Assembly (NCBI RefSeq): GCF_003018255.1
Contig: NZ_CP027440.1
Length of the DNA stretch: 64,000 bases
Direction: 5' to 3' (one strand)
DNA from: Escherichia coli
GTDB taxonomy: Bacteria > Pseudomonadota > Gammaproteobacteria > Enterobacterales > Enterobacteriaceae
The position numbers and the translations under genes were made by a program. Positions 1,077-62,156 of the stretch are shown here, in pieces. A model generated the notes under the pieces. That model saw only the letters and a program-made list of their open reading frames with translations. It had not been told where the DNA came from and made no database searches. How positions within the stretch are numbered: the first letter of the stretch is position 1; each line of letters starts with the position of its first letter.

Positions 1077-3434
<2,358 letters not shown>

Positions 3435-3438
3435 TTAG

Positions 3439-3690
<252 letters not shown>

Positions 3691-13206: not shown

Positions 13207-14331
13207 CTAACAAGATGGAGTGAGCGATTCATTGTATTTTAACGCCAGTGAGGTCAGCATTTGTGTTACGCGACCTGCGGATAATAACGCGCTTTGGGTA
13301 AAGTCGTGTTGGTCTGTCAGCCATGTGATAAAACAACGACTGGTTGCCAGAGAAACATTTGCGCCCCTTTCTAAGCAGGCTCCCGTGAGTAGGCAGACCA
13401 TCTTGCAGTTATTCCCCTGCTCCCAGCGCTGCCACTGATTTTGCCACCAACCATGGTATGTCGTTCCCTTAAAATGCCAGGGCGTATCAGCGTTACTGTC
13501 ACTGATTTCTTCTTCTACGAACCAAAGTTCACCTTGTTGTTGGCGGAACTGATCTGCCCAGGCTGTAATAATTGCGCCTCTTAGAAAACATTCGTGTGAA
13601 ATAATATGCGTTTTGACATCTGGATAGCGGATTTTCAGTATTCTGAAATGCCCGTGTGCCGTGATAACCGGGCGTAGTATGGCTCCCTTACCGTTGCGCT
13701 TGAGTACAGCACTGCCATACTGAATTTCATCGAACTGGCTCCGGCGCAAGAATTGCGCTTCACGCATATCTACCTTCTGCACGATATCGCGATGGTGCAT
13801 AGTTGGTTCTGTGTTGCCCTTGTAACTGTACCGCAGACTGTCTCCTGTCTGATGTTGCGTATAATTCGTGGAGAGATGAAGAATGTTGCCACGAGTGGCG
13901 TCAAGACTGACTAAAACATACAGTTTTTGTACTGCGCTGGCCCCTTGAAAGGGTATGAACAGTTGAACGGTTTCAATGGCCTGGGGATGCGTAATTTCTT
14001 TCTGATACTGTTTAGGCGTCCAGACTTTTTTGCAGTTACGGCATTGAATGCGTTGCGAACCCTGTGGATTGTGACCATAACAAATCATGTCTGTGCCATA
14101 ACATACCGGGCAGAAATGACCCTTCTCCGAGGCCCACGTAGATAAGTGAACTGACAACCAGTCACGAAATTGTTGCTCGTCAAACAACGGCGGGTAACTG
14201 CCACATGCCCGACAGTGCAGTGCCGGATAACCCAGTTTATAGTCTGGCCAACTGTAATCTTCCGATGAGGCCAATCCCAAATTTCGGCAACCGAACGTTT
14301 TACAGGCATTAATCGTAAACAGAGTCGACAT
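13207..14331 (-). CDS. Hypothetical cysteine-rich protein with multiple zinc-ribbon-like CxxC pairs; no signal peptide
   Basis: 374-aa ORF with ATG start; N-terminal third has C10/C15, C40-x2-C43, C74-x2-C77, C84, C97-x2-C100 with GHNP between the last two pairs; C-terminal part His/Trp-rich. No family recognised by eye. Confidence 0.6.
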   Translation of the reverse strand: MSTLFTINACKTFGCRNLGLASSEDYSWPDYKLGYPALHCRACGSYPPLFDEQQFRDWLSVHLSTWASEKGHFCPVCYGTDMICYGHNPQGSQRIQCRNCKKVWTPKQYQKEITHPQAIETVQLFIPFQGASAVQKLYVLVSLDATRGNILHLSTNYTQHQTGDSLRYSYKGNTEPTMHHRDIVQKVDMREAQFLRRSQFDEIQYGSAVLKRNGKGAILRPVITAHGHFRILKIRYPDVKTHIISHECFLRGAIITAWADQFRQQQGELWFVEEEISDSNADTPWHFKGTTYHGWWQNQWQRWEQGNNCKMVCLLTGACLERGANVSLATSRCFITWLTDQHDFTQSALLSAGRVTQMLTSLALKYNESLTPSC

Positions 14332-14338
14332 ATATCAC

Positions 14339-14360
14339 CAACGATTTCACAAGGTCGTTG
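14339..14360. promoter_or_regulatory. Candidate operator palindrome in the divergent promoter region
   Basis: CAACGA-N10-TCGTTG inverted repeat immediately upstream of the Cys-rich ORF start and about 100 bp upstream of paralog C. Confidence 0.3.
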
Positions 14361-14463
14361 ATTTTGTCCGGCAACTATCCCCTGCAGATGTGATTACTCT
14401 CACATAAATAAGTCTTTCAGAACGTAATGTAGCAATCCTTTATCTCACTGAAAGGGATTGTTT

Positions 14464-20823: not shown

Positions 20824-21441
20824 TTATTTAGCAAAATACCGATAGTGCCCCACCATCCGCCAGCTAAACAGTACATCTTCTTCCTGCGCGCCTGCGCCAA
20901 TGTTATGTATCACCAGCGGCGTACCGTCGCGGGCGAAGCCATCTGACACCACCCCAATATGTGCCAGCCCGTTATCTAATCGCCAGGAGACAATATCGCC
21001 CGCTTGATAGTCACTGGGGTTCTTGCTGGTGGGGCGTGTTTTATCGTGGCGGGTAAACCAGGTTTCCAGATTAGGCACCCGGCGGTGATCGATGTTGCTG
21101 TCCGGGCGCTTTAACTGCCATTTTTGCGGGTACGCAGCAAAATTCTTCGCCATATCTTCGTGCACCAGTTTCTGCAAATCGACCTTCTGGCTGCGCAATG
21201 CACGGATCACCACATCGGAACATACGCCGCGTTCTTGCGGGACATCACCGCCAGGATAGGTAAGCTGCACATACGCCGGATCGTAAAATAGCGTGCTGCC
21301 GATTTGCTGTCTGGCGCCGTCTGCGATGGCAAGATTGGTGTTGGCCTGGATTTGTACCACGGTTGGTGGAACGGCGGGAGATTTTAAGGAGTAACTGGTA
21401 AATACCGTCAGAAGACTGAATAACGCCAGTGAAGCTTTCAT
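20824..21441 (-). CDS. yijF: DUF1287-family exported protein YijF
   Basis: 205-aa ORF with signal peptide MKASLALFSLLTVFTSYS. Confidence 0.8.
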   Translation of the reverse strand: MKASLALFSLLTVFTSYSLKSPAVPPTVVQIQANTNLAIADGARQQIGSTLFYDPAYVQLTYPGGDVPQERGVCSDVVIRALRSQKVDLQKLVHEDMAKNFAAYPQKWQLKRPDSNIDHRRVPNLETWFTRHDKTRPTSKNPSDYQAGDIVSWRLDNGLAHIGVVSDGFARDGTPLVIHNIGAGAQEEDVLFSWRMVGHYRYFAK

Positions 21442-21716: not shown

Positions 21717-22820
21717 TTATTCCCACTCTTGCAGGAAACGCTGACCATACTGGTCGGCTACCAGCAGTGCGGCGTAAACCTGATCTGGCGTCGCGCCGCC
21801 AGGCATGTTGTGGATGGTTTCACCTTCTGCACATGCCGCTTCTGCCACAATTCGCATTTTCGCCGGGACATCTTCTTTAATATCCAGTTGAGCGAGAGTT
21901 ATTGGCAAACCTACCGCATGGCTAAGTGCAGCTACGGTTTCGATTTCCTCCACCGGCGCGTTTTCCAGAACCAGCTGCGTCAGCGTACCAAATGCCACTT
22001 TTTCACCGTGGTAATAGTGATGCGCGTCCGGGATAGCGGTCAGGCCGTTATGCACCGCGTGAGCCGCCGCCAGCCCGCCGCTTTCAAAACCAACGCCGCT
22101 CAAATAGGTGTTCGCTTCAATCACGCGCTCCAGCGCCGGGGTTACTACATGCTGCTCGGCGGCAAGCATCGCTTTTTCGCCTTCTTCCAGCAGGGTGTTG
22201 TAGCACAGTTCAGCCAGTGCCAGCGCCGCCTGGGTGCACTTGCCGCCCGCCATGGTGGTCGCGCCGCTACGAGAGCAAGCACGCGCTTCAAACCAGGTTG
22301 CCAGCGCATCGCCGATACCCGCCGCTAACAGACGTGCAGGTGCGCCAGCGACGATTTTGGTGTCGACAATGACCATATTCGGGTTATTTGGCAACATCAG
22401 ATAGCGGTCAAATTCACCATCATCGGTGTAGATAACAGACAATGCGCTGCACGGTGCGTCGGTAGAGGCGATAGTCGGTGCGATCGCTACCGGAACACCC
22501 ATGAAATGTGCCAGTGCTTTGGCAGTATCGAGAGTTTTTCCGCCACCGATACCGAGAATTGCGCCACACTGCGCAGTCTCCGCGATGCCACGCAGACGGT
22601 CGATCTCATTTTGCGAACATTCACCGCCAAACGGCGCAATTTCTACTACCAGTCCAGCATCTTTAAAGCTTTTCTCGACAGTGGATTGAGCAAAACCTAA
22701 AACAAATTTGTCACCCACCACTAACCAGCGTTCTGCCAGCGGCTTCAGGTATTCGCCCAGACGATTAATCACATCAGCGCCCTGGATGTATTTACCCGGT
22801 GATTGAATAATGCGGTCCAT
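21717..22820 (-). CDS. gldA: Glycerol dehydrogenase
   Basis: Track ORF 21717..22859 trimmed to [24 protein letters not shown]... (367 aa); iron-containing alcohol dehydrogenase family. Confidence 0.9.
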
Positions 22821-22830
22821 AATTGCTCCT

Positions 22831-23493
22831 TTAGAGATGAGTAGTGCCAAATGCGGCATTCCAGTCGTGTTCGAACTTCTCTATAGCTGACTCTACCGCA
22901 GGGGTGTTGAGCATTTGTTGCGCTACATCTAAGGGCAGGGTGATGGATTCACATCCTGCCAGTAAACAGTCCAGCGCCTGACGTGGTGTTTTAAAGCTGG
23001 CAGCCAGCACCATGCTTTCTGGCGCATGCATTTCCAACAGCGCTTGCAGCTCCTGTACAGTACGAATGCCGTCACCGCCCTGGGCATCTACGCGGTTAAC
23101 GTATGGAGCAACGTATTTGGCTCCAGCCAGCGCCGCCAGTAATCCTTGCGCTGCGCTGTACACTGCGGTTCCCAGCGTAGTAATGCCTTCTTTCTTCAGC
23201 ATTTTAATTGCTGCCAGACCTTCAGAGGTTACCGGAATTTTAACCACAATGCCCGGAATAGCGTCGCGCAGGCGTTTCGCTTCTTTCACCATACCCTGCG
23301 CGTCGCGGCTCATGGTCTGAGCAAACAGAATTCCCTCATCACCGATCGCTTTTTGAAGGCGCGGCAGCACTTCCCAGATGGACTCCTTGCTGGCAGCGAT
23401 AATGCTCGGGTTAGTTGTCACCCCGGCAATCGGGAATATGCGTGCCAGACGTTCGACTTCTGCGACGTTAGCGGTGTCCAGATACAGTTCCAT
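22831..23493 (-). CDS. fsaB: Fructose-6-phosphate aldolase 2 (transaldolase-like)
   Basis: 220-aa [38 protein letters not shown]... Confidence 0.9.
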
Positions 23494-23504
23494 GATGTTT
23501 CCTT

Positions 23505-26006
23505 TTACAGTTCCAGTTCATGTTGCAGCAGGCTGGCGATAGCGTCGGCAGAGGCGGCGTTAACCAGCGCGTTACGGAATTCTTCGTGCATGATGCGACG
23601 AGCGAGGCGCGAGAAAATGCGCATGTGCTGATCGCCCGCAGCATGTTTGTTCAGGGTTAACATAATGATGAATTGCGCTTCATCATCGCCCCAGCGCACC
23701 GGCGCTGCCAGACGCGCCACGCTGATGGTGGATTGCTCAATGTGTTCTGATTTGCTGTGGGGAATGGCAAAACTAAAGCCCAGACCGGTAGAGAAAACGG
23801 CCTCGCGCGCCCACAAGTCGGCTTCCAGTTTACGCGGATAGCGACAGCGGCCCGCCAGCAGCAGGTTATCGGTCATGCCTTTGAGCACTTCTTCTTTGCT
23901 GCGCCAGTCGCTTTCCAGTGTGATGCACTCGGCGGTGACCAGCGGTGCGTCTTGTTGGGTCATGCGGAATTGCGCCAGCAGGTGTTCCACTTCCAGCGAA
24001 GTACGGCAGGCCATTGCCTGGTTGAGCAACTTGCGGCACTCACGGCTATCAAGTTGCGCCATCCGCGCTTTCGCCGCCGGAATTGATGGTGCGCTCATGC
24101 TGAGTTCATCCAGCCCTAAACCGACCAGCAACGGCAGCACGGAACCTTTCGCTCCCAGTTCACCGCACAGACCAATCCATTTGCCCTGGCGATGCACCGC
24201 CTGTACGGCGTAATCGAGCGCCCGCAAGAATGCTGGATTCAGGCTGTTGTAGTGACGAGTCACCTTAGCGTTATCGCGATCCACTGCCAGTAGATATTGC
24301 GTCAGGTCATTACTACCAATACTAAAGAAATCAATCTCTTCGCAGCATTGATCGATGATGAACATCACCGACGGCACTTCCAGCATGATGCCGAGTGGAA
24401 TCTTCTCATCAAACGGAATGTGTTCGTTACGCAGTTGCTGTTTGGCTTCCGCCAGTTTTTCTTTCACCCATAAGATCTCTTCCATTGAGGAGATCATCGG
24501 GATCATGATTTTCAGGCTGCCGTGAGCAGAGGCGCGCAGGATCGACCGTAGTTGTGTGGTAAACAACGACGCGTATTCTTCATAAATACGCACCGCGCGA
24601 TAACCGAGGAACGGGTTTGCCTCTGCGGGAATATTCAGATAATCAACGGGTTTGTCACCGCCAATATCCATAGTGCGCACAATAATGCTGCGTCCGTTGG
24701 CGGACTCCAGCGCCTGACAAAAAATGTTGTACAGCTCGCTTTCGCCCGGTGCACTGGTGCGATCCATATAGAGCATTTCAGTGCGGAATAAACCAACGCC
24801 TTCCGCACCATTGCCGAATGCGGCCTGCGCTTCCACGGAGTGAGCGATGTTAGCGGCAATTTCAATGCGGATACCGTCAGCGGTACGGGCTTGTTGGGTC
24901 AGCCAGACACGCTGTTGCTCACGCAGGGCGTCCTGTACGCGGGCTTCTTGCTGATAATAACGGGCCACGGCTTCCCCTGGCTCAACCACAATCGCCCCTG
25001 CGTTGCCGTCGATATAAATCGTTTGATGCTGCCACGGAGTAAGGGCATCAATATCCACACCTACCAGCGTCGGAATGTTGAACGAACGGGCAAGGATCAC
25101 CGTATGTGAGGTGGTGCCGCCACTTTTCAGTAATAGACCTTTGAGGTGATTTTTATCCAGTTCGAGGAACTGGCTGGGGGTCAGTTCATCAGCCATACAA
25201 ATGGCGGGCTGCGTCAGTTTGCCCGGTGCCGGGAAGCGTTGCTCACCGTAGATTTGCTGGAGTAACTGGAAGCAGACGTCGCGTACGTCCAGGGCACGTT
25301 CTTGCAGGTAGCTGCTGCTGGAACGGGCGAACTCTTCGCAAAAGTGATTCGCACTGGCAACAATCGCTTCGGCGCAGCTTAATCCGGCGCTGACACCTGC
25401 CAGTAAATGTTCGCGCAGGGAAGTATCGCCAGCCAGGGATCGGTGAGCTTCCAGTATCGCGCTGGTAGCACCGTCGCTATCCAGCAGACGAAATTCAATG
25501 TTTTTCATCACCAGTGTCAGGCCGTTTTCCAGCGCGGATTGCTCGGCGTCAACGCCTTTGGCAGCAGGAAGATTACCCAGCGCATTGAGATCTAAAGAAG
25601 AGATCGGCGTCAGAATGCCGCCTGCACTACCACTGCACACGGTGCGAGCACGGATAATTTGCGGATTCAGATTGGTCAGTGAAACCGGCAGTGGTTCCAG
25701 TTCGTCAGATTTTACTTCCGCCAGCGGTGCGTCGCAGTGGGGGAATTCATCGCGCAGCCATTGGCTTAAACGCTGGTGCGCTTCCTGTTCGTCGGCCCCG
25801 GAAATCAGTAACTGGCAGTTATCGCCCACCAGCGTATCGGTGCCAATCAGCGCAAGGGCGCTTTTGGCGTTGCCCTTGCGGTCAGTGCGCAGGTTATGCC
25901 ACTCAATTTGTGATGAAAAAGTATTACACAGCGTTTCAACGTGGCTTGCCGGACGTGCATGTACGCCGTTAGGTAGCTCACAAATAAATTCCACAATCAG
26001 GGCCAT
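23505..26006 (-). CDS. ptsA: Multiphosphoryl transfer protein (Enzyme I-like / HPr-like / IIA-like fusion) of the fructose-like PTS
   Basis: 833-aa [29 protein letters not shown]... (HPr-like N-terminus), central PEP-utilising domain. Confidence 0.9.
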
Positions 26007-26314
26007 TGCCTCTCTCCCGGTACGGTTTTCTGTTTACAGGATAAGAGCGCACGGCAACGGCCTGCCATGTGACAAATCTGCCAAAAGCTGGACAAATGTA
26101 ATGTAACCGTCAATTTGCGACGCGTCTCACAAGACGCCGTTTTGCGGCATGCTTCCGGATCATCGCAAGTTATGAGGCGGATCGCATTTTTGTACTGATA
26201 TTACAAAAGTCCAGTAAATGGCCTTTTTATCCACTGTTTGCTCCGCCTGCGATTGCCTATTGTTTCCTCCATCAAAAATATGGACATGGGCTTTTGCAAG
26301 CCCGGGAGCAGCTT

Positions 26315-27394
26315 ATGAATGAGTTGGTGCAGATCCTGAAAAATACCCGTCAGCATTTAATGACGGGCGTTTCACACATGATTCCCTTCGTGGTATCGGG
26401 CGGTATTTTGCTGGCGGTTTCCGTCATGTTGTATGGCAAAGGCGCAGTGCCGGATGCCGTAGCCGATCCGAATCTGAAAAAACTGTTTGATATCGGCGTT
26501 GCGGGTTTGACGCTGATGGTGCCTTTCCTCGCCGCTTACATTGGTTACTCCATTGCAGAGCGTTCTGCGCTGGCTCCGTGCGCTATCGGTGCCTGGGTTG
26601 GTAACAGCTTTGGTGCGGGCTTCTTTGGTGCACTGATCGCCGGGATTATCGGCGGCATCGTGGTGCATTACCTGAAGAAAATTCCGGTGCATAAAGTTCT
26701 GCGCTCGGTGATGCCAATCTTCATCATTCCGATCGTCGGCACACTGATTACCGCAGGCATCATGATGTGGGGGCTGGGCGAGCCTGTGGGGGCATTGACC
26801 AACAGCCTGACTCAGTGGCTTCAGGGGATGCAGCAGGGCAGCATTGTTATGCTGGCGGTGATCATGGGCCTGATGCTGGCGTTCGATATGGGCGGTCCGG
26901 TTAACAAAGTGGCCTATGCCTTCATGCTGATTTGCGTTGCTCAGGGTGTTTATACCGTGGTGGCCATTGCTGCCGTGGGTATTTGTATTCCGCCGCTGGG
27001 GATGGGGCTGGCGACGCTGATTGGTCGTAAAAATTTCTCCGCAGAAGAGCGCGAAACCGGTAAAGCGGCGCTGGTGATGGGGTGCGTTGGGGTTACTGAA
27101 GGGGCGATTCCTTTCGCCGCTGCCGATCCGCTGCGTGTTATTCCTTCCATCATGGTCGGTTCAGTTTGTGGTGCAGTAACTGCGGCGCTGGTCGGTGCGC
27201 AGTGCTATGCAGGCTGGGGCGGTCTGATTGTGCTGCCGGTGGTTGAAGGCAAGCTGGGTTATATCGCAGCAGTAGCTGTCGGAGCAGTGGTGACGGCTGT
27301 TTGTGTGAACGTGCTGAAAAGTCTGGCGCGTAAAAATGGGTCTTCGACTGATGAAAAAGAAGACGACCTGGATTTGGATTTTGAAATTAATTAA
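26315..27394 (+). CDS. frwC: Fructose-like PTS permease IIC component
   Basis: Track ORF 26294..27394 trimmed to MNELVQILKNTRQHLMTGVSHMIPFVVSGG... (359 aa), polytopic membrane protein. Confidence 0.9.
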   Translation: MNELVQILKNTRQHLMTGVSHMIPFVVSGGILLAVSVMLYGKGAVPDAVADPNLKKLFDIGVAGLTLMVPFLAAYIGYSIAERSALAPCAIGAWVGNSFGAGFFGALIAGIIGGIVVHYLKKIPVHKVLRSVMPIFIIPIVGTLITAGIMMWGLGEPVGALTNSLTQWLQGMQQGSIVMLAVIMGLMLAFDMGGPVNKVAYAFMLICVAQGVYTVVAIAAVGICIPPLGMGLATLIGRKNFSAEERETGKAALVMGCVGVTEGAIPFAAADPLRVIPSIMVGSVCGAVTAALVGAQCYAGWGGLIVLPVVEGKLGYIAAVAVGAVVTAVCVNVLKSLARKNGSSTDEKEDDLDLDFEIN

Positions 27395-27408
27395 TTGAGG
27401 AACGAGCC

Positions 27409-27729
27409 ATGACGAAAATTATTGCAGTAACCGCGTGTCCATCTGGTGTTGCCCATACCTATATGGCGGCAGAGGCGCTGGAAAGTGCCGCGAAAGCGAA
27501 AGGCTGGGAAGTGAAAGTAGAAACCCAGGGCTCGATTGGTCTGGAAAACGAACTGACTGCGGAAGACGTGGCGAGCGCCGATATGGTGATCCTGACCAAA
27601 GATATCGGCATCAAGTTTGAAGAGCGTTTTGCTGGCAAGACCATCGTGCGCGTCAACATCAGCGACGCGGTAAAACGCGCTGATGCCATTATGAGCAAAA
27701 TTGAAGCTCACCTGGCACAAACCGCTTAA
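27409..27729 (+). CDS. frwB: Fructose-like PTS IIB component
   Basis: 106-aa ORF MTKIIAVTACPSGVAHTYMAAEALE... (IIB Cys motif). Confidence 0.9.
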   Translation: MTKIIAVTACPSGVAHTYMAAEALESAAKAKGWEVKVETQGSIGLENELTAEDVASADMVILTKDIGIKFEERFAGKTIVRVNISDAVKRADAIMSKIEAHLAQTA

Positions 27730-27779
27730 GTTCTTATCCCGCCCGTAAGGGCGGGTTCGCTTTCCCACAGGAGTTCCTC

Positions 27780-30077
27780 ATGACGAATCGTATCTCTCGC
27801 CTCAAAACTGCACTGTTTGCCAATACCCGTGAAATCTCGCTGGAGCGTGCGCTGCTTTATACCGCCAGCCATCGGCAAACCGAAGGCGAACCGGTGATAT
27901 TGCGCCGGGCGAAAGCAACAGCGTATATCCTTGAACATGTTGAAATTTCGATTCGTGATGAAGAACTGATTGCCGGTAACCGCACCGTAAAACCGCGCGC
28001 CGGGATTATGTCGCCGGAAATGGACCCTTACTGGCTGCTGAAAGAGCTGGATCAATTCCCGACGCGTCCGCAGGACCGCTTTGCTATCAGCGAAGAAGAT
28101 AAACGTATCTACCGTGAAGAGTTGTTCCCGTACTGGGAAAAACGTTCGATGAAAGATTTCATTAACGGGCAGATGACGGATGAAGTAAAAGCCGCGACCA
28201 GCACGCAGATTTTCAGCATCAACCAGACGGATAAAGGCCAGGGGCACATTATTATTGATTACCCGCGCCTGCTGAATCACGGGCTGGGTGAGCTGGTAGC
28301 GCAGATGCAGCAACATTGTCAGCAACAGCCGGAGAATCACTTTTATCAGGCAGCGCTGTTACTGCTCGAAGCCTCGCAGAAACACATTTTGCGTTACGCC
28401 GAACTGGCGGAAACGATGGCGGCAAGCTGCACTGATGCCCAGCGTCGCGAAGAACTGCTGACTATTGCGGAGATCTCCCGCCATAACGCCGAACATAAGC
28501 CGCAGACGTTCTGGCAGGCGTGCCAGTTATTCTGGTACATGAACATCATTCTGCAATACGAATCCAACGCCAGTTCACTATCGTTGGGGCGCTTCGACCA
28601 GTATATGTTGCCGTTCTATCAGGCATCATTAACCCAGGGCGAAGATCCGGCGTTCCTGAAAGAACTGCTCGAATCTTTATGGGTGAAATGCAACGACATC
28701 GTGCTGTTGCGCTCCACCAGTAGCGCGCGTTATTTCGCCGGTTTCCCGACCGGCTATACCGCACTGCTCGGCGGGTTAACCGAGAACGGACGTAGCGCGG
28801 TGAACGTGCTTTCGTTCCTTTGCCTTGACGCTTATCAAAGCGTGCAATTACCGCAACCGAACCTCGGCGTGCGCACTAACGCCTTGATCGACACGCCGTT
28901 CCTGATGAAAACCGCAGAAACCATTCGCCTCGGCACCGGTATTCCGCAAATCTTTAACGATGAAGTGGTGGTGCCAGCGTTCCTCAACCGTGGCGTTTCG
29001 CTGGAAGATGCACGCGACTATTCCGTAGTGGGCTGTGTGGAATTATCTATTCCCGGCAGAACCTACGGCTTGCATGACATCGCGATGTTTAATCTGCTGA
29101 AAGTGATGGAAATCTGCCTGCATGAAAATGAAGGCAATGCTGCGCTGACTTATGAAGGTTTACTGGAGCAGATCCGCGCCAAGATCAGCCACTACATCAC
29201 CCTGATGGTTGAGGGCAGCAATATTTGCGATATCGGTCACCGTGACTGGGCACCTGTACCGCTGCTCTCATCGTTTATCAGCGATTGTCTGGAAAAAGGC
29301 AGCGATATTACCGATGGCGGCGCGCGTTATAACTTCTCCGGCGTACAGGGGATCGGTATCGCCAACCTGAGCGATTCTCTCCATGCGTTGAAAGGGATGG
29401 TTTTTGAGCAACAGCGTTTAAGTTTTGACGAATTGCTGTCGGTATTAAAAGCCAACTTCGCAACGCCAGAAGGCGAAAAAGTCCGTGCTCGCTTAATTAA
29501 CCGCTTCGAGAAATACGGTAACGATATCGACGAGGTGGATAACATCAGCGCCGAACTGTTACGCCACTACTGCAAAGAAGTGGAAAAATACCAGAACCCG
29601 CGCAGCGGCTACTTCACGCCGGGATCGTATACCGTTTCTGCTCACGTCCCGTTGGGATCGGTGGTTGGCGCGACGCCAGACGGTCGTTTTGCCGGGGAAC
29701 AACTGGCAGACGGCGGCTTGTCACCCATGCTGGGCCAGGACGCACAAGGGCCAACGGCGGTACTGAAGTCAGTCAGTAAGCTCGATAATACGCTGCTGTC
29801 TAACGGTACGTTGCTGAACGTGAAATTCACTCCGGCGACTCTGGAAGGTGAAGCGGGATTACGCAAACTGGCCGACTTCTTACGGGCGTTTACCCAGCTT
29901 AAGTTGCAGCATATTCAGTTTAACGTGGTGAACGCCGACACGTTGCGGGAAGCGCAACAGCGCCCACAAGATTATGCCGGGCTGGTGGTGCGCGTTGCCG
30001 GATACAGCGCCTTCTTTGTCGAATTGTCGAAGGAGATCCAGGATGACATCATCCGCCGGACAGCGCATCAGCTGTAA
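27780..30077 (+). CDS. pflD: Glycyl-radical enzyme, PFL-like (formate acetyltransferase 2 homolog), substrate unknown
   Basis: 765-aa ORF; glycyl-radical motif VVRVAGYSAFF near the C-terminus. Confidence 0.9.
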   Translation: MTNRISRLKTALFANTREISLERALLYTASHRQTEGEPVILRRAKATAYILEHVEISIRDEELIAGNRTVKPRAGIMSPEMDPYWLLKELDQFPTRPQDRFAISEEDKRIYREELFPYWEKRSMKDFINGQMTDEVKAATSTQIFSINQTDKGQGHIIIDYPRLLNHGLGELVAQMQQHCQQQPENHFYQAALLLLEASQKHILRYAELAETMAASCTDAQRREELLTIAEISRHNAEHKPQTFWQACQLFWYMNIILQYESNASSLSLGRFDQYMLPFYQASLTQGEDPAFLKELLESLWVKCNDIVLLRSTSSARYFAGFPTGYTALLGGLTENGRSAVNVLSFLCLDAYQSVQLPQPNLGVRTNALIDTPFLMKTAETIRLGTGIPQIFNDEVVVPAFLNRGVSLEDARDYSVVGCVELSIPGRTYGLHDIAMFNLLKVMEICLHENEGNAALTYEGLLEQIRAKISHYITLMVEGSNICDIGHRDWAPVPLLSSFISDCLEKGSDITDGGARYNFSGVQGIGIANLSDSLHALKGMVFEQQRLSFDELLSVLKANFATPEGEKVRARLINRFEKYGNDIDEVDNISAELLRHYCKEVEKYQNPRSGYFTPGSYTVSAHVPLGSVVGATPDGRFAGEQLADGGLSPMLGQDAQGPTAVLKSVSKLDNTLLSNGTLLNVKFTPATLEGEAGLRKLADFLRAFTQLKLQHIQFNVVNADTLREAQQRPQDYAGLVVRVAGYSAFFVELSKEIQDDIIRRTAHQL

Positions 30078-30921
30078 CGTTGTGGAAACGCGCCGCAATG
30101 ATGTGGCGCGCATTTTCAACATTCAGCGTTATTCACTGAATGACGGCGAGGGCATTCGTACGGTGGTCTTTTTTAAAGGCTGTCCGCATCTTTGCCCATG
30201 GTGTGCTAATCCGGAGTCGATCTCCGGCAAAATCCAGACGGTACGCAGAGAGGCGAAATGTCTGCACTGTGCGAAATGTTTGCGTGATGCGGATGAATGC
30301 CCCTCCGGGGCGTTTGAACGGATTGGCCGCGATATCAGCCTTGACGCGCTGGAGCGGGAAGTGATGAAAGATGACATTTTCTTTCGCACGTCCGGCGGCG
30401 GCGTCACGCTTTCTGGCGGCGAAGTGTTAATGCAGGCGGAGTTTGCTACCCGTTTTTTACAGCGGCTGCGGTTGTGGGGCGTGTCATGCGCCATTGAAAC
30501 TGCCGGAGACGCGCCAGCCAGCAAGCTGTTACCGCTGGCGAAATTGTGCGATGAAGTGTTGTTCGATTTAAAAATTATGGACGCGACTCAGGCGCGGGAT
30601 GTGGTGAAGATGAATCTGCCACGCGTGCTGGAGAATCTGCGTTTGCTGGTGAGTGAGGGCGTCAACGTGATCCCGCGTTTACCGCTGATCCCTGGTTTCA
30701 CGCTCAGCCAGGAGAATATGCAGCAGGCTCTGGACGTGCTGATCCCGCTGAATATCAGGCAGATCCATCTGTTACCGTTTCATCAGTACGGCGAACCGAA
30801 ATACCGCCTGCTGGGGAAAACATGGTCGATGAAAGAGGTGCCTGCGCCGTCGTCAGCTGATGTGGCAACGATGCGCGAAATGGCAGAACGGGCCGGATTT
30901 CAGGTTACCGTGGGAGGTTAA
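30043..30921 (+). CDS. pflC: Glycyl-radical enzyme activating protein (radical SAM)
   Basis: Track ORF 29974..30921 trimmed to MTSSAGQRISCNVVETRRNDVARIF... (292 aa); CPHLCPWC radical-SAM cluster motif; start overlaps pflD 3' end by 35 nt. Confidence 0.9.
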   Translation: MTSSAGQRISCNVVETRRNDVARIFNIQRYSLNDGEGIRTVVFFKGCPHLCPWCANPESISGKIQTVRREAKCLHCAKCLRDADECPSGAFERIGRDISLDALEREVMKDDIFFRTSGGGVTLSGGEVLMQAEFATRFLQRLRLWGVSCAIETAGDAPASKLLPLAKLCDEVLFDLKIMDATQARDVVKMNLPRVLENLRLLVSEGVNVIPRLPLIPGFTLSQENMQQALDVLIPLNIRQIHLLPFHQYGEPKYRLLGKTWSMKEVPAPSSADVATMREMAERAGFQVTVGG

Positions 30922-30922
30922 A

Positions 30923-31264
30923 ATGGCATACCTGGTGGCAGTAACCGCCTGCGTCAGTGGCGTGGCGCATACTTATATGGCGGCGGAACGGCTGGAAAAG
31001 TTGTGCCTGTTAGAGAAGTGGGGCGTCAGCATTGAAACTCAGGGCGCGCTGGGAACGGAGAATCGTTTAGCGGACGAGGATATCCGCCGGGCGGATGTTG
31101 CGCTGTTAATTACGGATATCGAGCTTGCCGGTGCTGAGCGATTTGACCATTGCCGCTATGTGCAATGCAGCATCTACGCTTTCCTTCGTGAGCCGCAGCG
31201 GGTGATGAGCGCGGTACGCAAAGTGCTTTCTGCGCCGCAGCAAACCCATCTCATTCTGGAGTAG
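30923..31264 (+). CDS. frwD: Fructose-like PTS IIB component 2
   Basis: Track ORF 30860..31264 trimmed to MAYLVAVTACVSGVAHTYMAAERLEK... (113 aa). Confidence 0.9.
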   Translation: MAYLVAVTACVSGVAHTYMAAERLEKLCLLEKWGVSIETQGALGTENRLADEDIRRADVALLITDIELAGAERFDHCRYVQCSIYAFLREPQRVMSAVRKVLSAPQQTHLILE

Positions 31265-32102
31265 TCGGTTTTTCTGTCAGTTGGCTGTGGTACTGCCGAC
31301 GATATTCCGACGGTGAGCGTTCGGTATTTTTACGAAACAGACGGCAGAAGTAGTTGCTGTCGACAAAGCCGCAGGCGTGCGCCACTTCTTTTACCTTCAG
31401 GTCATAGCCTTTCAATAACGTCTTAGCGTGCTCCAGTCGCGTGTGATTCAGGTATTCGTTAAAACCAGTGGCCCCCGTTTTTTGAAACAGGTGCGAGAGG
31501 TAATTTGGCGAAATATAGAATGCCTGTGCGACAGATTCGCGGGTAAGCGCGGAGGCATAGCGTTCGTCGATATAATCACGAATAGCTTCGAACAGTGCCT
31601 GGCTGCGTGAGGCGGTCTGGATTTGGCTGCCAAGCAAATCGCGGCAGTGGCTAAGCAGGCTGGCGACGATAAGCCTTGCCGTTTGCTGCTCCTGCGACTG
31701 CATTTGCATTTCATTGAGCGTTTGTAGCAGAAAAGAACCTATGCGTGGGCCGCGTCGGGCGACGTGTTGCTTCGCCAGATTTTGATATTGTTTGCCATCC
31801 CATTGCACGACGCTGAAGCCGAGTTGCTGTTTGCCAAACAGCACGCTAAAGGTAGTGGCGGGGGCTTGCCATTGTGGAAAATTCCAGCCACCAGCGGGAA
31901 CGTACAGCACATCGCCGGGAACTAACGCTGCTCCAGCGCCGGTATCAATAAACTCACCTTCCAGCACAATTTCCAGCCGTGGAAAATCGACCTGATACGC
32001 AAGATCGGGCACCGGGCCGTTGCTGCTGGCAAAGTAAATCTGGCGCAGGGACAGCGGGCCGTTGATCAGGCGGGAGAGCAGATAGCTGACGTCGTGATAC
32101 AT
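31251..32102 (-). CDS. yijO: AraC/XylS-family transcriptional regulator
   Basis: 283-aa ORF; C-terminal AraC-type HTH region (...NYLSHLFQKTGATGFNEYLNHTRLEHAKTLL...); 3' end overlaps frwD convergently by 14 nt. Confidence 0.85.
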   Translation of the reverse strand: MYHDVSYLLSRLINGPLSLRQIYFASSNGPVPDLAYQVDFPRLEIVLEGEFIDTGAGAALVPGDVLYVPAGGWNFPQWQAPATTFSVLFGKQQLGFSVVQWDGKQYQNLAKQHVARRGPRIGSFLLQTLNEMQMQSQEQQTARLIVASLLSHCRDLLGSQIQTASRSQALFEAIRDYIDERYASALTRESVAQAFYISPNYLSHLFQKTGATGFNEYLNHTRLEHAKTLLKGYDLKVKEVAHACGFVDSNYFCRLFRKNTERSPSEYRRQYHSQLTEKPTTPE

Positions 32103-44825: not shown

Positions 44826-44942
44826 AAAAAAAAGCGGATCCTGGAGATCCGCAAAAGTTCACGTTGGCTTTAGTTATTCGAGTTGAGAAACTCTCGAAAC
44901 GGGCAGTGACTTCAAGGGTTAAAAGAGGTGCCGCTCCGTTTC
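44826..44942 (-). ncRNA. oxyS: OxyS small regulatory RNA
   Basis: Reverse complement reads GAAACGGAGCGGCACCTCTTTTAACCCTTGAAGTCA...GCGGATCTCCAGGATCCGCTTTTTTTT, matching recalled OxyS with its 3' terminator hairpin; divergent from oxyR. Confidence 0.85.
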
Positions 44943-49819: not shown

Positions 49820-49949
49820 GATGTATCCTGAAAAATTAAAGTACGCGGCGATTGTAGGGATTGCTCATCAGATGTCCAGATCTTGATGAATTCCTATTTG
49901 TGAGCTACGTCTGGACAGTAACTTGTTACAACCTGTAGCATCCACTTGC

Positions 49950-50160
49950 CGGTCCTGTGAGTTAATAGGGAATCCAGTGCGAATCTGGAGCTGACGCGCA
50001 GCGGTAAGGAAAGGTGCGATGATTGCGTTATGCGGACACTGCCATCCGGTGGGAAGTCATCATCTCTTAGTATCTTAGATACCCCTCCAAGCCCGAAGAC
50101 CTGCCGGCTAACGTCGCATCTGGTTCTCATCATCGCGTAATATTGATGAAACCTGCGGCA
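49950..50160 (+). ncRNA. Cobalamin (AdoCbl) riboswitch in the btuB 5' leader
   Basis: Long untranslated leader containing a B12-box-like element (ccaagcccgaagacctgccgg, ~50088-50107); boundaries approximate. Confidence 0.7.
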
Positions 50161-53245: not shown

Positions 53246-54787
<1,542 letters not shown>

Positions 54788-54872
54788 CCTTAAAGAAGCG
54801 TACTTTGCAGTGCTCACACAGATTGTCTGATAGAAAGTGAAAAGCAAGGCGTCTTGCGAAGCAGACTGATAC

Positions 54873-54948
54873 GTCCCCTTCGTCTAGAGGCCCAGGACAC
54901 CGCCCTTTCACGGCGGTAACAGGGGTTCGAATCCCCTAGGGGACGCCA
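54873..54948 (+). tRNA. gltT: tRNA-Glu (UUC) in the 16S-23S spacer
   Basis: GTCCCCTTCGTCTAGAGGCCCAGGACACCGCCCTTTCACGGCGGTAACAGGGGTTCGAATCCCCTAGGGGACGCCA. Confidence 0.95.
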
Positions 54949-55132
54949 CTTGCTGGTTTGTGAGTGAAAGTCACCTGCCTTAGTATCTCAAAACTCATCT
55001 TCGGGTGATGTTTGAGATATTTGCTCTTTAAAAATCTGGATCAAGCTGAAAATTGAAACACTGAACAACGAAAGTTGTTCGTGAGTCTCTCAAATTTTCG
55101 CAACTCTGAAGTGAAACATCTTCGGGTTGTGA

Positions 55133-58036
<2,904 letters not shown>

Positions 58037-58129
58037 ACAACGCCGAAGATGTTTTGGCGGATGAGAGAAGATTTTCAGCCTGATACAGATTAAATTAACC
58101 GGCGACAAGCGGGTTAATAAAACAGAATT

Positions 58130-58249
58130 TGCCTGGCGGCCGTAGCGCGGTGGCCCCACCTGACCCCATGCCGAACTCAGAAGTGAAACGCCGTAGCGCC
58201 GATGGTAGTGTGGGGTCTCCCCATGCGAGAGTAGGGAACTGCCAGGCAT
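58130..58249 (+). rRNA. rrfB: 5S ribosomal RNA
   Basis: TGCCTGGCGGCCGTAGCGCGGTGGCCCCACCTGACCCCATGCCGAACTCAG...GGGAACTGCCAGGCAT; 120 nt. Confidence 0.95.
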
Positions 58250-61714: not shown

Positions 61715-61790
<76 letters not shown>

Positions 61791-61798
61791 TCAAGTCC

Positions 61799-61883
<85 letters not shown>

Positions 61884-61999
61884 ATTTCGGCCACGCGATG
61901 GCGTAGCCCGAGACGATAAGTTCGCTTACCGGCTCGAATAAAGAGAGCTTCTCTCGATATTCAGTGCAGAATGAAAATCAGGTAGCCGAGTTCCAGGAT

Positions 62000-62074
<75 letters not shown>

Positions 62075-62080
62075 AGATGT

Positions 62081-62156
62081 GCTGATATAGCTCAGTTGGT
62101 AGAGCGCACCCTTGGTAAGGGTGAGGTCGGCAGTTCGAATCTGCCTATCAGCACCA
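62081..62156 (+). tRNA. thrT: tRNA-Thr (GGU)
   Basis: GCTGATATAGCTCAGTTGGTAGAGCGCACCCTTGGTAAGGGTGAGGTCGGCAGTTCGAATCTGCCTATCAGCACCA. Confidence 0.95.

Follow-up and report, generated by a model that had tools for sequence, protein, structure and literature searches.

An intact Escherichia coli gene cluster assigned to the anaerobic catabolism of 1,5-anhydromannitol and still annotated under a formate C-acetyltransferase name

The stretch of DNA analyzed here (the window, 64,000 nucleotides of Escherichia coli contig NZ_CP027440.1) carries, at positions 21717-31264, eight genes for a fructose-like phosphotransferase system (PTS), a fructose-6-phosphate aldolase (FSA), a dehydrogenase, and a glycyl-radical enzyme (GRE), PflD, with its activase, PflC. 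We read this region as the E. coli "anhydroglycolysis" cluster, which would serve the anaerobic catabolism of 1,5-anhydro-D-mannitol (AM), and we put the probability of this reading at roughly 0.88. Genes were placed using the list of open reading frames (ORFs) and the annotation of E. coli DETEC-S792, the closest complete genome (99.6% identical), while E. coli K-12 MG1655 (hereafter K-12) was the reference for gene-by-gene comparison. The features of the locus are as follows.

21717-22820, minus strand: gldA, NAD-dependent 1,2-propanediol/glycerol dehydrogenase, 367 amino acids
22831-23493, minus strand: fsaB, fructose-6-phosphate aldolase 2, 220 amino acids
23505-26006, minus strand: ptsA, fused HPr-Enzyme I-EIIA (fructose/mannitol type) multiphosphoryl transfer protein, 833 amino acids
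26007-26314, no strand assigned: putative divergent ptsA/frwC control region, with blocks conserved across genera in an alignment
26315-27394, plus strand: frwC, fructose-family PTS EIIC permease, 359 amino acids
27409-27729, plus strand: frwB, PTS EIIB, 106 amino acids, Cys10 in TACPSGVAHT
27738-27755, plus strand: frwB-pflD intercistronic hairpin, CCCGCCCGTAAGGGCGGG, from a terminator-like scan and RNA folding
27780-30077, plus strand: pflD, predicted glycyl-radical 1,5-anhydromannitol-6-phosphate ring-opening lyase/dehydratase, 765 amino acids, Gly741/Cys419/Glu421
30043-30921, plus strand: pflC, radical S-adenosylmethionine (SAM) activase of PflD, 292 amino acids, overlapping pflD by 35 nucleotides
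30923-31264, plus strand: frwD, second PTS EIIB paralogue, 113 amino acids, Cys10 in TACVSGVAHT
31251-32102, minus strand: yijO, AraC-family regulator lying outside the eight-gene stretch, convergent with frwD and overlapping it by 14 nucleotides

All eight genes begin with ATG, contain no internal stop, and have the same length as in K-12, and the 9548-nucleotide stretch is colinear with K-12 with zero indels. Gene order and orientation are identical, as are the flanking genes from katG to ppc, and each protein differs from its K-12 counterpart by only 0-8 residues. The ratio of nonsynonymous to synonymous substitution rates (dN/dS) against K-12 ranged from 0 to 0.07 across the eight genes, and every one of the eight proteins exceeded its NCBIfam equivalog or subfamily cut-off. 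The locus belongs to the core E. coli chromosome, with katG/yijEF on one side and yijO/eptC/ppc on the other; it was matched in 5425 of 5426 complete E. coli genomes, with at least 80% coverage in 5393. A sequence-only reading of the window had described an eight-gene cluster that is complete and retains the motifs RVAGYSA and CPHLCPWC. Re-translation bore this out: the eight genes are open at these positions, free of frameshifts and stops relative to K-12, and the two motifs lie at PflD 738-744 and PflC 47-54. The same reading had called the cluster "cryptic", a label that does not fit, since the genes are under strong purifying selection. Pseudogenization of the cluster was considered and rejected, given zero stops or indels and the low dN/dS.

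We then examined PflD, the enzyme at the center of the assignment. It is identical at 757 of 765 residues (99%; eight differences) to both K-12 PflD and the protein in PDB entry 8YJO, "Probable dehydratase PflD", with a dN/dS of 0.068 against K-12. The glycyl-radical motif places the radical residue at Gly741, within a Pfam Gly_radical domain spanning residues 645-747, and the active-site loop, GCVE at 418-421, has a single cysteine, Cys419, with Glu421 two residues on. A single Cys-x-Glu loop is the hallmark of eliminase-type GREs. In an alignment that included PflB, YbiW (GCIE) and the Firmicute orthologues showed the same Cys-x-Glu pattern as PflD, whereas the PflB loop IACCVS, with its Cys-Cys pair, aligned with VGCVEL of PflD; the two proteins are only 24% identical. 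Among 134 diverse full-length GRE representatives, the columns of the three key residues were strongly conserved (Cys419 in 133, Glu421 in 112, and Gly741 in 126). PflD scored 1343 bits on TIGR01774, the PFL2/glycerol dehydratase family (cut-off 678), and 121.9 bits on TIGR01255, the equivalog for true pyruvate formate-lyase (PFL), far below its cut-off of 994.2.

The adjacent pflC, which overlaps the 3' end of pflD, encodes an activase with the radical-SAM CX3CX2C signature (C47/C51/C54). PflC lies above the cut-offs of NCBIfam NF007483 (630 bits) and TIGR02494 and has a dN/dS of 0.07 against K-12, and its cysteines 73, 76, 79, and 86 are read as putative ligands of an auxiliary Fe-S cluster. 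The glycyl-radical motif, the Cys-x-Glu loop, the TIGR01774 score, and the neighboring activase all agree, and on these sequence features PflD is classed as an eliminase/dehydratase-type GRE. Structures have been deposited for PflD (8YJO), for YbiW (8YJN and 8ID7), and for a Streptococcus dysgalactiae orthologue (8ID0), the last identified by a search with the sequence rebuilt from the PDB alignment.

The substrate of this enzyme class member has been published. According to the review PMC12441222, which summarizes Ma et al. (JACS 2024;146:26187, PMID 39283600), 1,5-anhydroglucitol and 1,5-anhydromannitol are phosphorylated by a PTS, after which PflD cleaves 1,5-anhydromannitol-6-phosphate (AM6P) and YbiW cleaves 1,5-anhydroglucitol-6-phosphate, both to 1-deoxyfructose-6-phosphate. 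The same review states that the glycyl radical is required for cleavage of the 6-phosphates and that 1,5-anhydroglucitol supports growth of E. coli and many gut bacteria. Besides PMC12441222, our literature search found no substantive account of the anhydro-polyol pathway. Earlier sources had described the roles of fsaA and fsaB as "enigmatic" in 2020, while reporting that FSA accepts hydroxyacetone as a donor (PMC7767278), and had called the role of the ptsA-fsaB-gldA operon "not completely clear" in 2019 (PMC6643234). The view that the substrate is unassigned was thus true up to about 2020 and is now superseded. In treating the PTS and PflD as having no assigned substrate, the sequence-only reading has been overtaken; it had named a published assignment as what would overturn it, and for PflD such an assignment appeared in 2024 with Ma et al., as the review PMC12441222 relates. 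Its suggestion that the co-located genes form an anaerobic sugar or polyol pathway was correct, as the anhydro-polyol pathway outlined in that review attests. Both the cluster and its biochemistry are already known, and the window carries an ordinary intact E. coli anhydromannitol fermentation cluster. As to the steps after ring opening, FsaA and FsaB reportedly split 1-deoxyfructose-6-phosphate into glyceraldehyde-3-phosphate and hydroxyacetone, and GldA reportedly reduces the hydroxyacetone to 1,2-propanediol.

On this basis, the cluster would work as follows. Phosphoenolpyruvate would phosphorylate PtsA, and the phosphoryl group would be relayed through its Enzyme I, HPr, and EIIA parts to the EIIB cysteine of FrwB and/or FrwD, so that AM would enter through FrwC as AM6P. 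PflC would install the radical on Gly741 of PflD, from where it would pass to Cys419, and the Cys419 thiyl would abstract the C2 hydrogen of AM6P. Elimination of the adjacent C1-O5 ether bond, with Glu421 as the base, would open the ring, and return of the hydrogen would give 1-deoxy-D-fructose-6-phosphate. Retro-aldol cleavage by FsaB through Lys85 would then release glyceraldehyde-3-phosphate, which would enter glycolysis, and hydroxyacetone, which GldA would reduce with NADH to 1,2-propanediol, regenerating NAD+ and balancing redox. We infer the atom-level radical steps of PflD by analogy with the glycerol and diol dehydratase GREs, and the conversion of AM6P to 1-deoxyfructose-6-phosphate by the PflD allele in the window is predicted from its near-identity to 8YJO. 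Because C2 becomes the carbonyl carbon, the glucitol and mannitol epimers would converge on one product, which on this reading would explain why both YbiW and PflD are retained in E. coli.

The transport and downstream genes have the parts that such a scheme calls upon. In PtsA, Pfam finds a PTS-HPr domain (residues 7-84), the PEP-utilisers_N, mobile, and C domains of Enzyme I (123-653), and PTS_EIIA_2 (690-829), with phospho-accepting histidines at H16 (GVHARPA), H301 (GGTTSHTVI), and H750 (IPH); its dN/dS against K-12 is 0.033. FrwC, which scored 720 bits on NCBIfam NF007787 (cut-off 426) and also matched TIGR01427, is identical to its K-12 counterpart, as is FrwB, which matched NCBIfam NF007783 and Pfam PTS_IIB. 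FrwD scored 223 bits on NCBIfam NF007747 (cut-off 153) and is one residue off K-12. All five modules of a fructose-family PTS (Enzyme I, HPr, EIIA-2, EIIB, and EIIC) are therefore present with their phospho-accepting His or Cys residues. The two EIIB proteins are 43% identical and both keep the active-site Cys10; FrwD is the less conserved of the pair between E. coli and Edwardsiella (76% versus 92% for FrwB).

FsaB lies above the cut-offs of TIGR00875 (351 bits versus 246) and NF009296, and its translation has the Schiff-base Lys85 in a VVKIP motif. GldA scored 752 bits on NCBIfam NF047954 (cut-off 700), matched Pfam Fe-ADH, and is two residues off K-12 with a dN/dS of 0.027; a 380-residue ORF starting at 22859 corresponds to an older, longer call of the gldA start. 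A divergence hotspot lies within fsaB at 22917-23216, where 32 differences from K-12 fall in 300 nucleotides, compared to 0-15 in other 300-nucleotide bins. Synonymous divergence (dS) from K-12 reaches 0.335 in fsaB and 0.236 in frwB, against 0.06-0.11 in most neighbors, while the amino acids are almost unchanged (dN/dS of fsaB, 0.018). The hotspot was likely acquired by recombination with a more distant Escherichia lineage.

To place the cluster in a wider context, we compared loci carrying PflD orthologues. Within the Enterobacteriaceae, PflD orthologues are at least 89% identical, and the two loci examined there, from Salmonella and Leclercia, keep synteny with the window. In Edwardsiella tarda, a module consisting of ptsA-fsaB, frwC-frwB-pflD-pflC-frwD, and an AraC-type regulator is bordered by uvrC/pgsA on one side and the ato genes on the other; its proteins share 73-92% identity with those of the window. 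Since this copy sits in an unrelated context, it suggests that the frw/pfl module is a transferable unit. Beyond the Enterobacterales, Firmicute PflD orthologues are 61-64% identical to PflD of the window (about 61-62% for Streptococcus and Bacillus), and their loci are organized as follows.

Streptococcus dysgalactiae: one operon of EIIA, EIIB, EIIC, GRE, activase, FSA aldolase, and Fe-ADH
Bacillus sp. HMF5848: DeoR, EIIC, an epimerase-family gene, EIIA, EIIB, GRE, activase, FSA, HPr, and Enzyme I
Clostridium: DeoR, then GRE, activase, FSA, and oxidoreductase, followed by a second GRE with its own activase and the first mannose-type PTS genes
Lactiplantibacillus: DeoR with GRE and activase only

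The GRE and activase are thus linked to an FSA gene in three of the four Firmicute loci, to a fructose-type PTS in two, and to an Fe-ADH in one. This recurrence of the GRE-activase-FSA linkage across phyla, as judged from gene order, supports the published pathway independently. An exhaustive search of representatives with PflD returned the whole PflD family as one cluster at 50% identity; the next representatives, P0122 (47%, on a short contig) and P0123 (55%, a truncated gene), were uninformative on neighborhood.

Two of these loci have further features of their own. On the Clostridium metagenome contig (L010, 9001-18243), two GRE cassettes lie side by side, one with the PflD orthologue, its activase, FSA, and a GFO/IDH-type oxidoreductase, and the other with an 801-residue GRE, its own activase, a DeoR regulator, and then the first mannose-type PTS genes; these may be the anhydromannitol and anhydroglucitol branches as neighbors. 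In Bacillus sp. HMF5848 (L011, 12915-14902), separate HPr and Enzyme I genes end the operon of the PflD orthologue. Since this arrangement parallels the HPr-Enzyme I-EIIA fusion of E. coli PtsA, a private branch for PTS energy coupling may recur.

The PflD allele of this strain is unusual. The protein is identical to PflD of DETEC-S792, and its eight differences from K-12 include R508S (CGC to AGC at 29301) and G609S (GGC to AGC at 29604). When exact 61-mers carrying these substitutions were searched for in the 5426 complete E. coli genomes, DETEC-S792 was the only other genome to contain them. In the set of 134 diverse GRE representatives, 84 have Lys or Arg at position 508 and 110 have Gly at position 609, and both positions are also conserved in YbiW and glycerol dehydratase. 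In the chain numbering of 8YJO the two residues are 524 and 625. The two substitutions spare the catalytic Gly, Cys, and Glu positions.

Several points weigh against assigning every step of AM catabolism to this cluster. The FsaB and GldA steps are proposed on the strength of what Ma et al. reportedly found, together with gene linkage and comparative evidence. Both gldA and fsaB also have a part in the metabolism of dihydroxyacetone and glycerol (PMC6643234). The Edwardsiella module has no gldA, and the Lactiplantibacillus locus consists of GRE and activase with neither aldolase nor PTS, so the accessory steps are not obligatorily linked to ring opening. The role of the Frw components as the AM transporter is proposed because of the way the operon is built and because PTS genes recur beside PflD orthologues. 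A second EIIB such as FrwD does not follow from the pathway: the Streptococcus and Bacillus clusters have one EIIB each, the Enterobacterales cluster two. Finally, the occurrence of R508S and G609S at positions conserved across the family is, from the alignment, a caveat to calling PflD intact.

How far do these points favor other explanations? The one closest to current annotation holds that PflD is a second pyruvate formate-lyase with PflC as its activase and that Frw is an anaerobic fructose PTS. RefSeq, NCBIfam NF007437, and nearly all source names do call PflD "formate C-acetyltransferase", the Frw components do belong to the fructose family, and older literature placed PtsA in a putative PTS for anaerobic fructose catabolism (PMC6643234). 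However, PflD falls far short on TIGR01255 (122 bits versus 994), is distant from PflB and lacks its Cys-Cys pair, and does not bind the FocA formate channel, unlike formate-producing GREs (PMC5600444); PDB and UniProt name it a "probable dehydratase", and a different reaction has been published, as the review PMC12441222 reports. We therefore rejected PflD as a true PFL on its TIGR01255 score, its single Cys-x-Glu loop, and the lack of FocA binding, and we regard the annotation-based explanation as scarcely credible. It is also improbable, if less extremely so, that the cluster is a silent or decaying relic in this strain with PflD crippled by its rare substitutions. The rarity of R508S and G609S (one other of 5426 genomes) at conserved GRE positions and the very low chromosomal expression reported for fsaA and fsaB (PMC7767278) would fit such a relic, but there are zero stops or frameshifts, dN/dS stays at 0.068 in pflD and does not exceed 0.07 in the other seven genes, the catalytic and phospho-relay residues are all intact, the two substitutions leave the Gly, Cys, and Glu catalytic positions untouched, and the same PflD allele persists in an independently sequenced isolate, DETEC-S792.

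The explanation with somewhat more in its favor, which we nevertheless consider unlikely, accepts PflD, PflC, FsaB, and GldA as published and has another PTS, of mannose or fructose type, make AM6P, leaving Frw and PtsA to serve a different substrate or a regulatory phosphorelay. It would accommodate the two EIIB paralogues that otherwise lack an explanation, as well as the Clostridium and Lactiplantibacillus orthologues that have no adjacent fructose-type PTS. Against it, pflDC sits between frw genes in a single transcription unit, and the PTS genes, including ptsA, moved together with the rest of the module into Edwardsiella. In Streptococcus and Bacillus, moreover, genes for EIIA, EIIB, and EIIC from the same PTS family lie beside the orthologues, in Bacillus with a dedicated HPr and Enzyme I as well, and the pathways begin with PTS phosphorylation, according to the review PMC12441222. 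The assignment of the whole cluster, Frw PTS included, to AM catabolism is thus the one that we prefer.

We also looked for signs of how the cluster is regulated. YijO, which has Pfam HTH_18 and HTH_AraC domains and which a 2022 source (PMC9308461) lists as being of unknown function, is encoded next to frwD in all four Enterobacterales loci examined, including those of Salmonella and Leclercia and the relocated Edwardsiella copy, where the YijO counterpart is 83% identical. The counterparts in the compared loci lie at 13529-14389 (L004), 13484-14335 (L005), and 13485-14333 (L006). In the Firmicute versions of the cluster, DeoR-type regulators are found instead of this AraC-family protein. An alignment of the ptsA/frwC region from E. 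coli, Salmonella, Leclercia, and Edwardsiella revealed near-invariant blocks at approximately 26064-26108, 26190-26240, and 26251-26266, the first containing a CRP-like TGTGA half-site. A scan for sigma-70 consensus sites returned fewer sites than it did in shuffled controls, with no hit between ptsA and frwC, and a repeat search of that intergenic region gave short, uninterpretable repeats with no clear operator repeat; for this reason, we propose no operator sequence. Since YijO stays with the module even where it has been relocated, and since the ptsA/frwC blocks are conserved, YijO is a reasonable candidate regulator of the cluster. More tentatively, and at a little below even odds for the two ideas jointly, YijO may be a dedicated AM-responsive regulator acting on the divergent ptsA/frwC promoters through the blocks at 26064-26266, and the rare PflD allele (R508S, G609S) may alter activity or specificity. 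In the literature searched, we found no description of YijO as an anhydromannitol regulator or of an effect of R508S/G609S on PflD.

A second possible control element lies in the 50-nucleotide gap between frwB and pflD. The GC-rich hairpin there has seven G-C pairs and a weakly T-rich tail and folds as RNA with -18.5 kcal/mol (z = -2.7). K-12 and Leclercia keep it, whereas the corresponding intergenic sequence of Salmonella and Edwardsiella is longer and unrelated. It may act as an attenuator within the operon or affect mRNA stability.

Elsewhere in the window, yijF (DUF1287; 20824-21441, minus strand) is intact and, at 618 nucleotides, equal in length to K-12 yijF; it is annotated as frameshifted in DETEC-S792. 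An Rfam scan recovered the landmarks expected for this region, namely an L31 leader, the OxyS small RNA, a cobalamin riboswitch, an rRNA operon, and a four-tRNA cluster (3419-3471, 44833-44942, 49933-50122, 53246-58247, and 61715-62153). By Rfam, the rRNA operon is complete, with 16S, tRNA, StyR-44, 23S, and 5S elements.

The main value of this analysis is as a correction of annotation. It carries little weight as a discovery lead, for this is a core E. coli cluster that was solved in 2024 with crystal structures. PflD is misfiled in public databases under the formate C-acetyltransferase name, which persists in the June 2026 release of NCBIfam NF007437, and the K-12 record still labels the Frw proteins "putative". 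As a result of this annotation lag, readers who rely on annotation or on older knowledge will go on flagging the cluster as unassigned. Beyond this, the pathway matters for gut ecology, as anhydro-polyols come from food and host, for the biology of 1,5-anhydroglucitol in human disease, and for 1,2-propanediol production.

Among known systems, the closest is the K-12 cluster b3945-b3953, the 1,5-anhydromannitol branch (8YJO), which has the same gene order, lengths, orientation, and catalytic and phospho-relay residues. The window differs from it only in alleles, namely PflD R508S/G609S and the divergent patch in fsaB. PflB and TdcE, the pyruvate formate-lyases (formate C-acetyltransferases), belong to the same superfamily and share with PflD a C-terminal glycyl-radical domain and radical-SAM activation, whereas PflB differs in overall sequence (24% identity), in having a Cys-Cys pair instead of Cys-x-Glu, and in that PflD does not bind FocA (PMC5600444).

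The sister system within E. coli is YbiW/YbiY with FsaA, the 1,5-anhydroglucitol-6-phosphate branch (8YJN and 8ID7), which has the same enzyme class, the Cys-x-Glu loop, and the motif RVAGYSAFF. In K-12, ybiW-ybiY adjoins fsaA, so that an FSA gene lies next door as in the pflD cluster, and YbiW and PflD form the same product, 1-deoxyfructose-6-phosphate, by the account in the review PMC12441222. YbiW shares just 38% identity with PflD, however, and its substrate is the C2 epimer; its locus lies outside the window, with neither PTS genes nor gldA adjacent. More broadly, PflD shares the TIGR01774 fold family, the glycyl/thiyl relay, and the Cys-x-Glu loop with the B12-independent glycerol dehydratase (1R8W), propanediol dehydratase, CutC, and HypD, and the activases of glycerol dehydratase and related GRE eliminases have auxiliary Fe-S cysteines, as PflC appears to have. 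The mechanism of PflD is likely of the same type, a radical-assisted elimination of a group beta to a hydroxyl-bearing carbon. What sets PflD apart from these eliminases is its substrate, a phosphorylated cyclic ether polyol: here it is the ring oxygen that leaves, which makes the reaction a ring opening and not the loss of water, trimethylamine, or a similar group.

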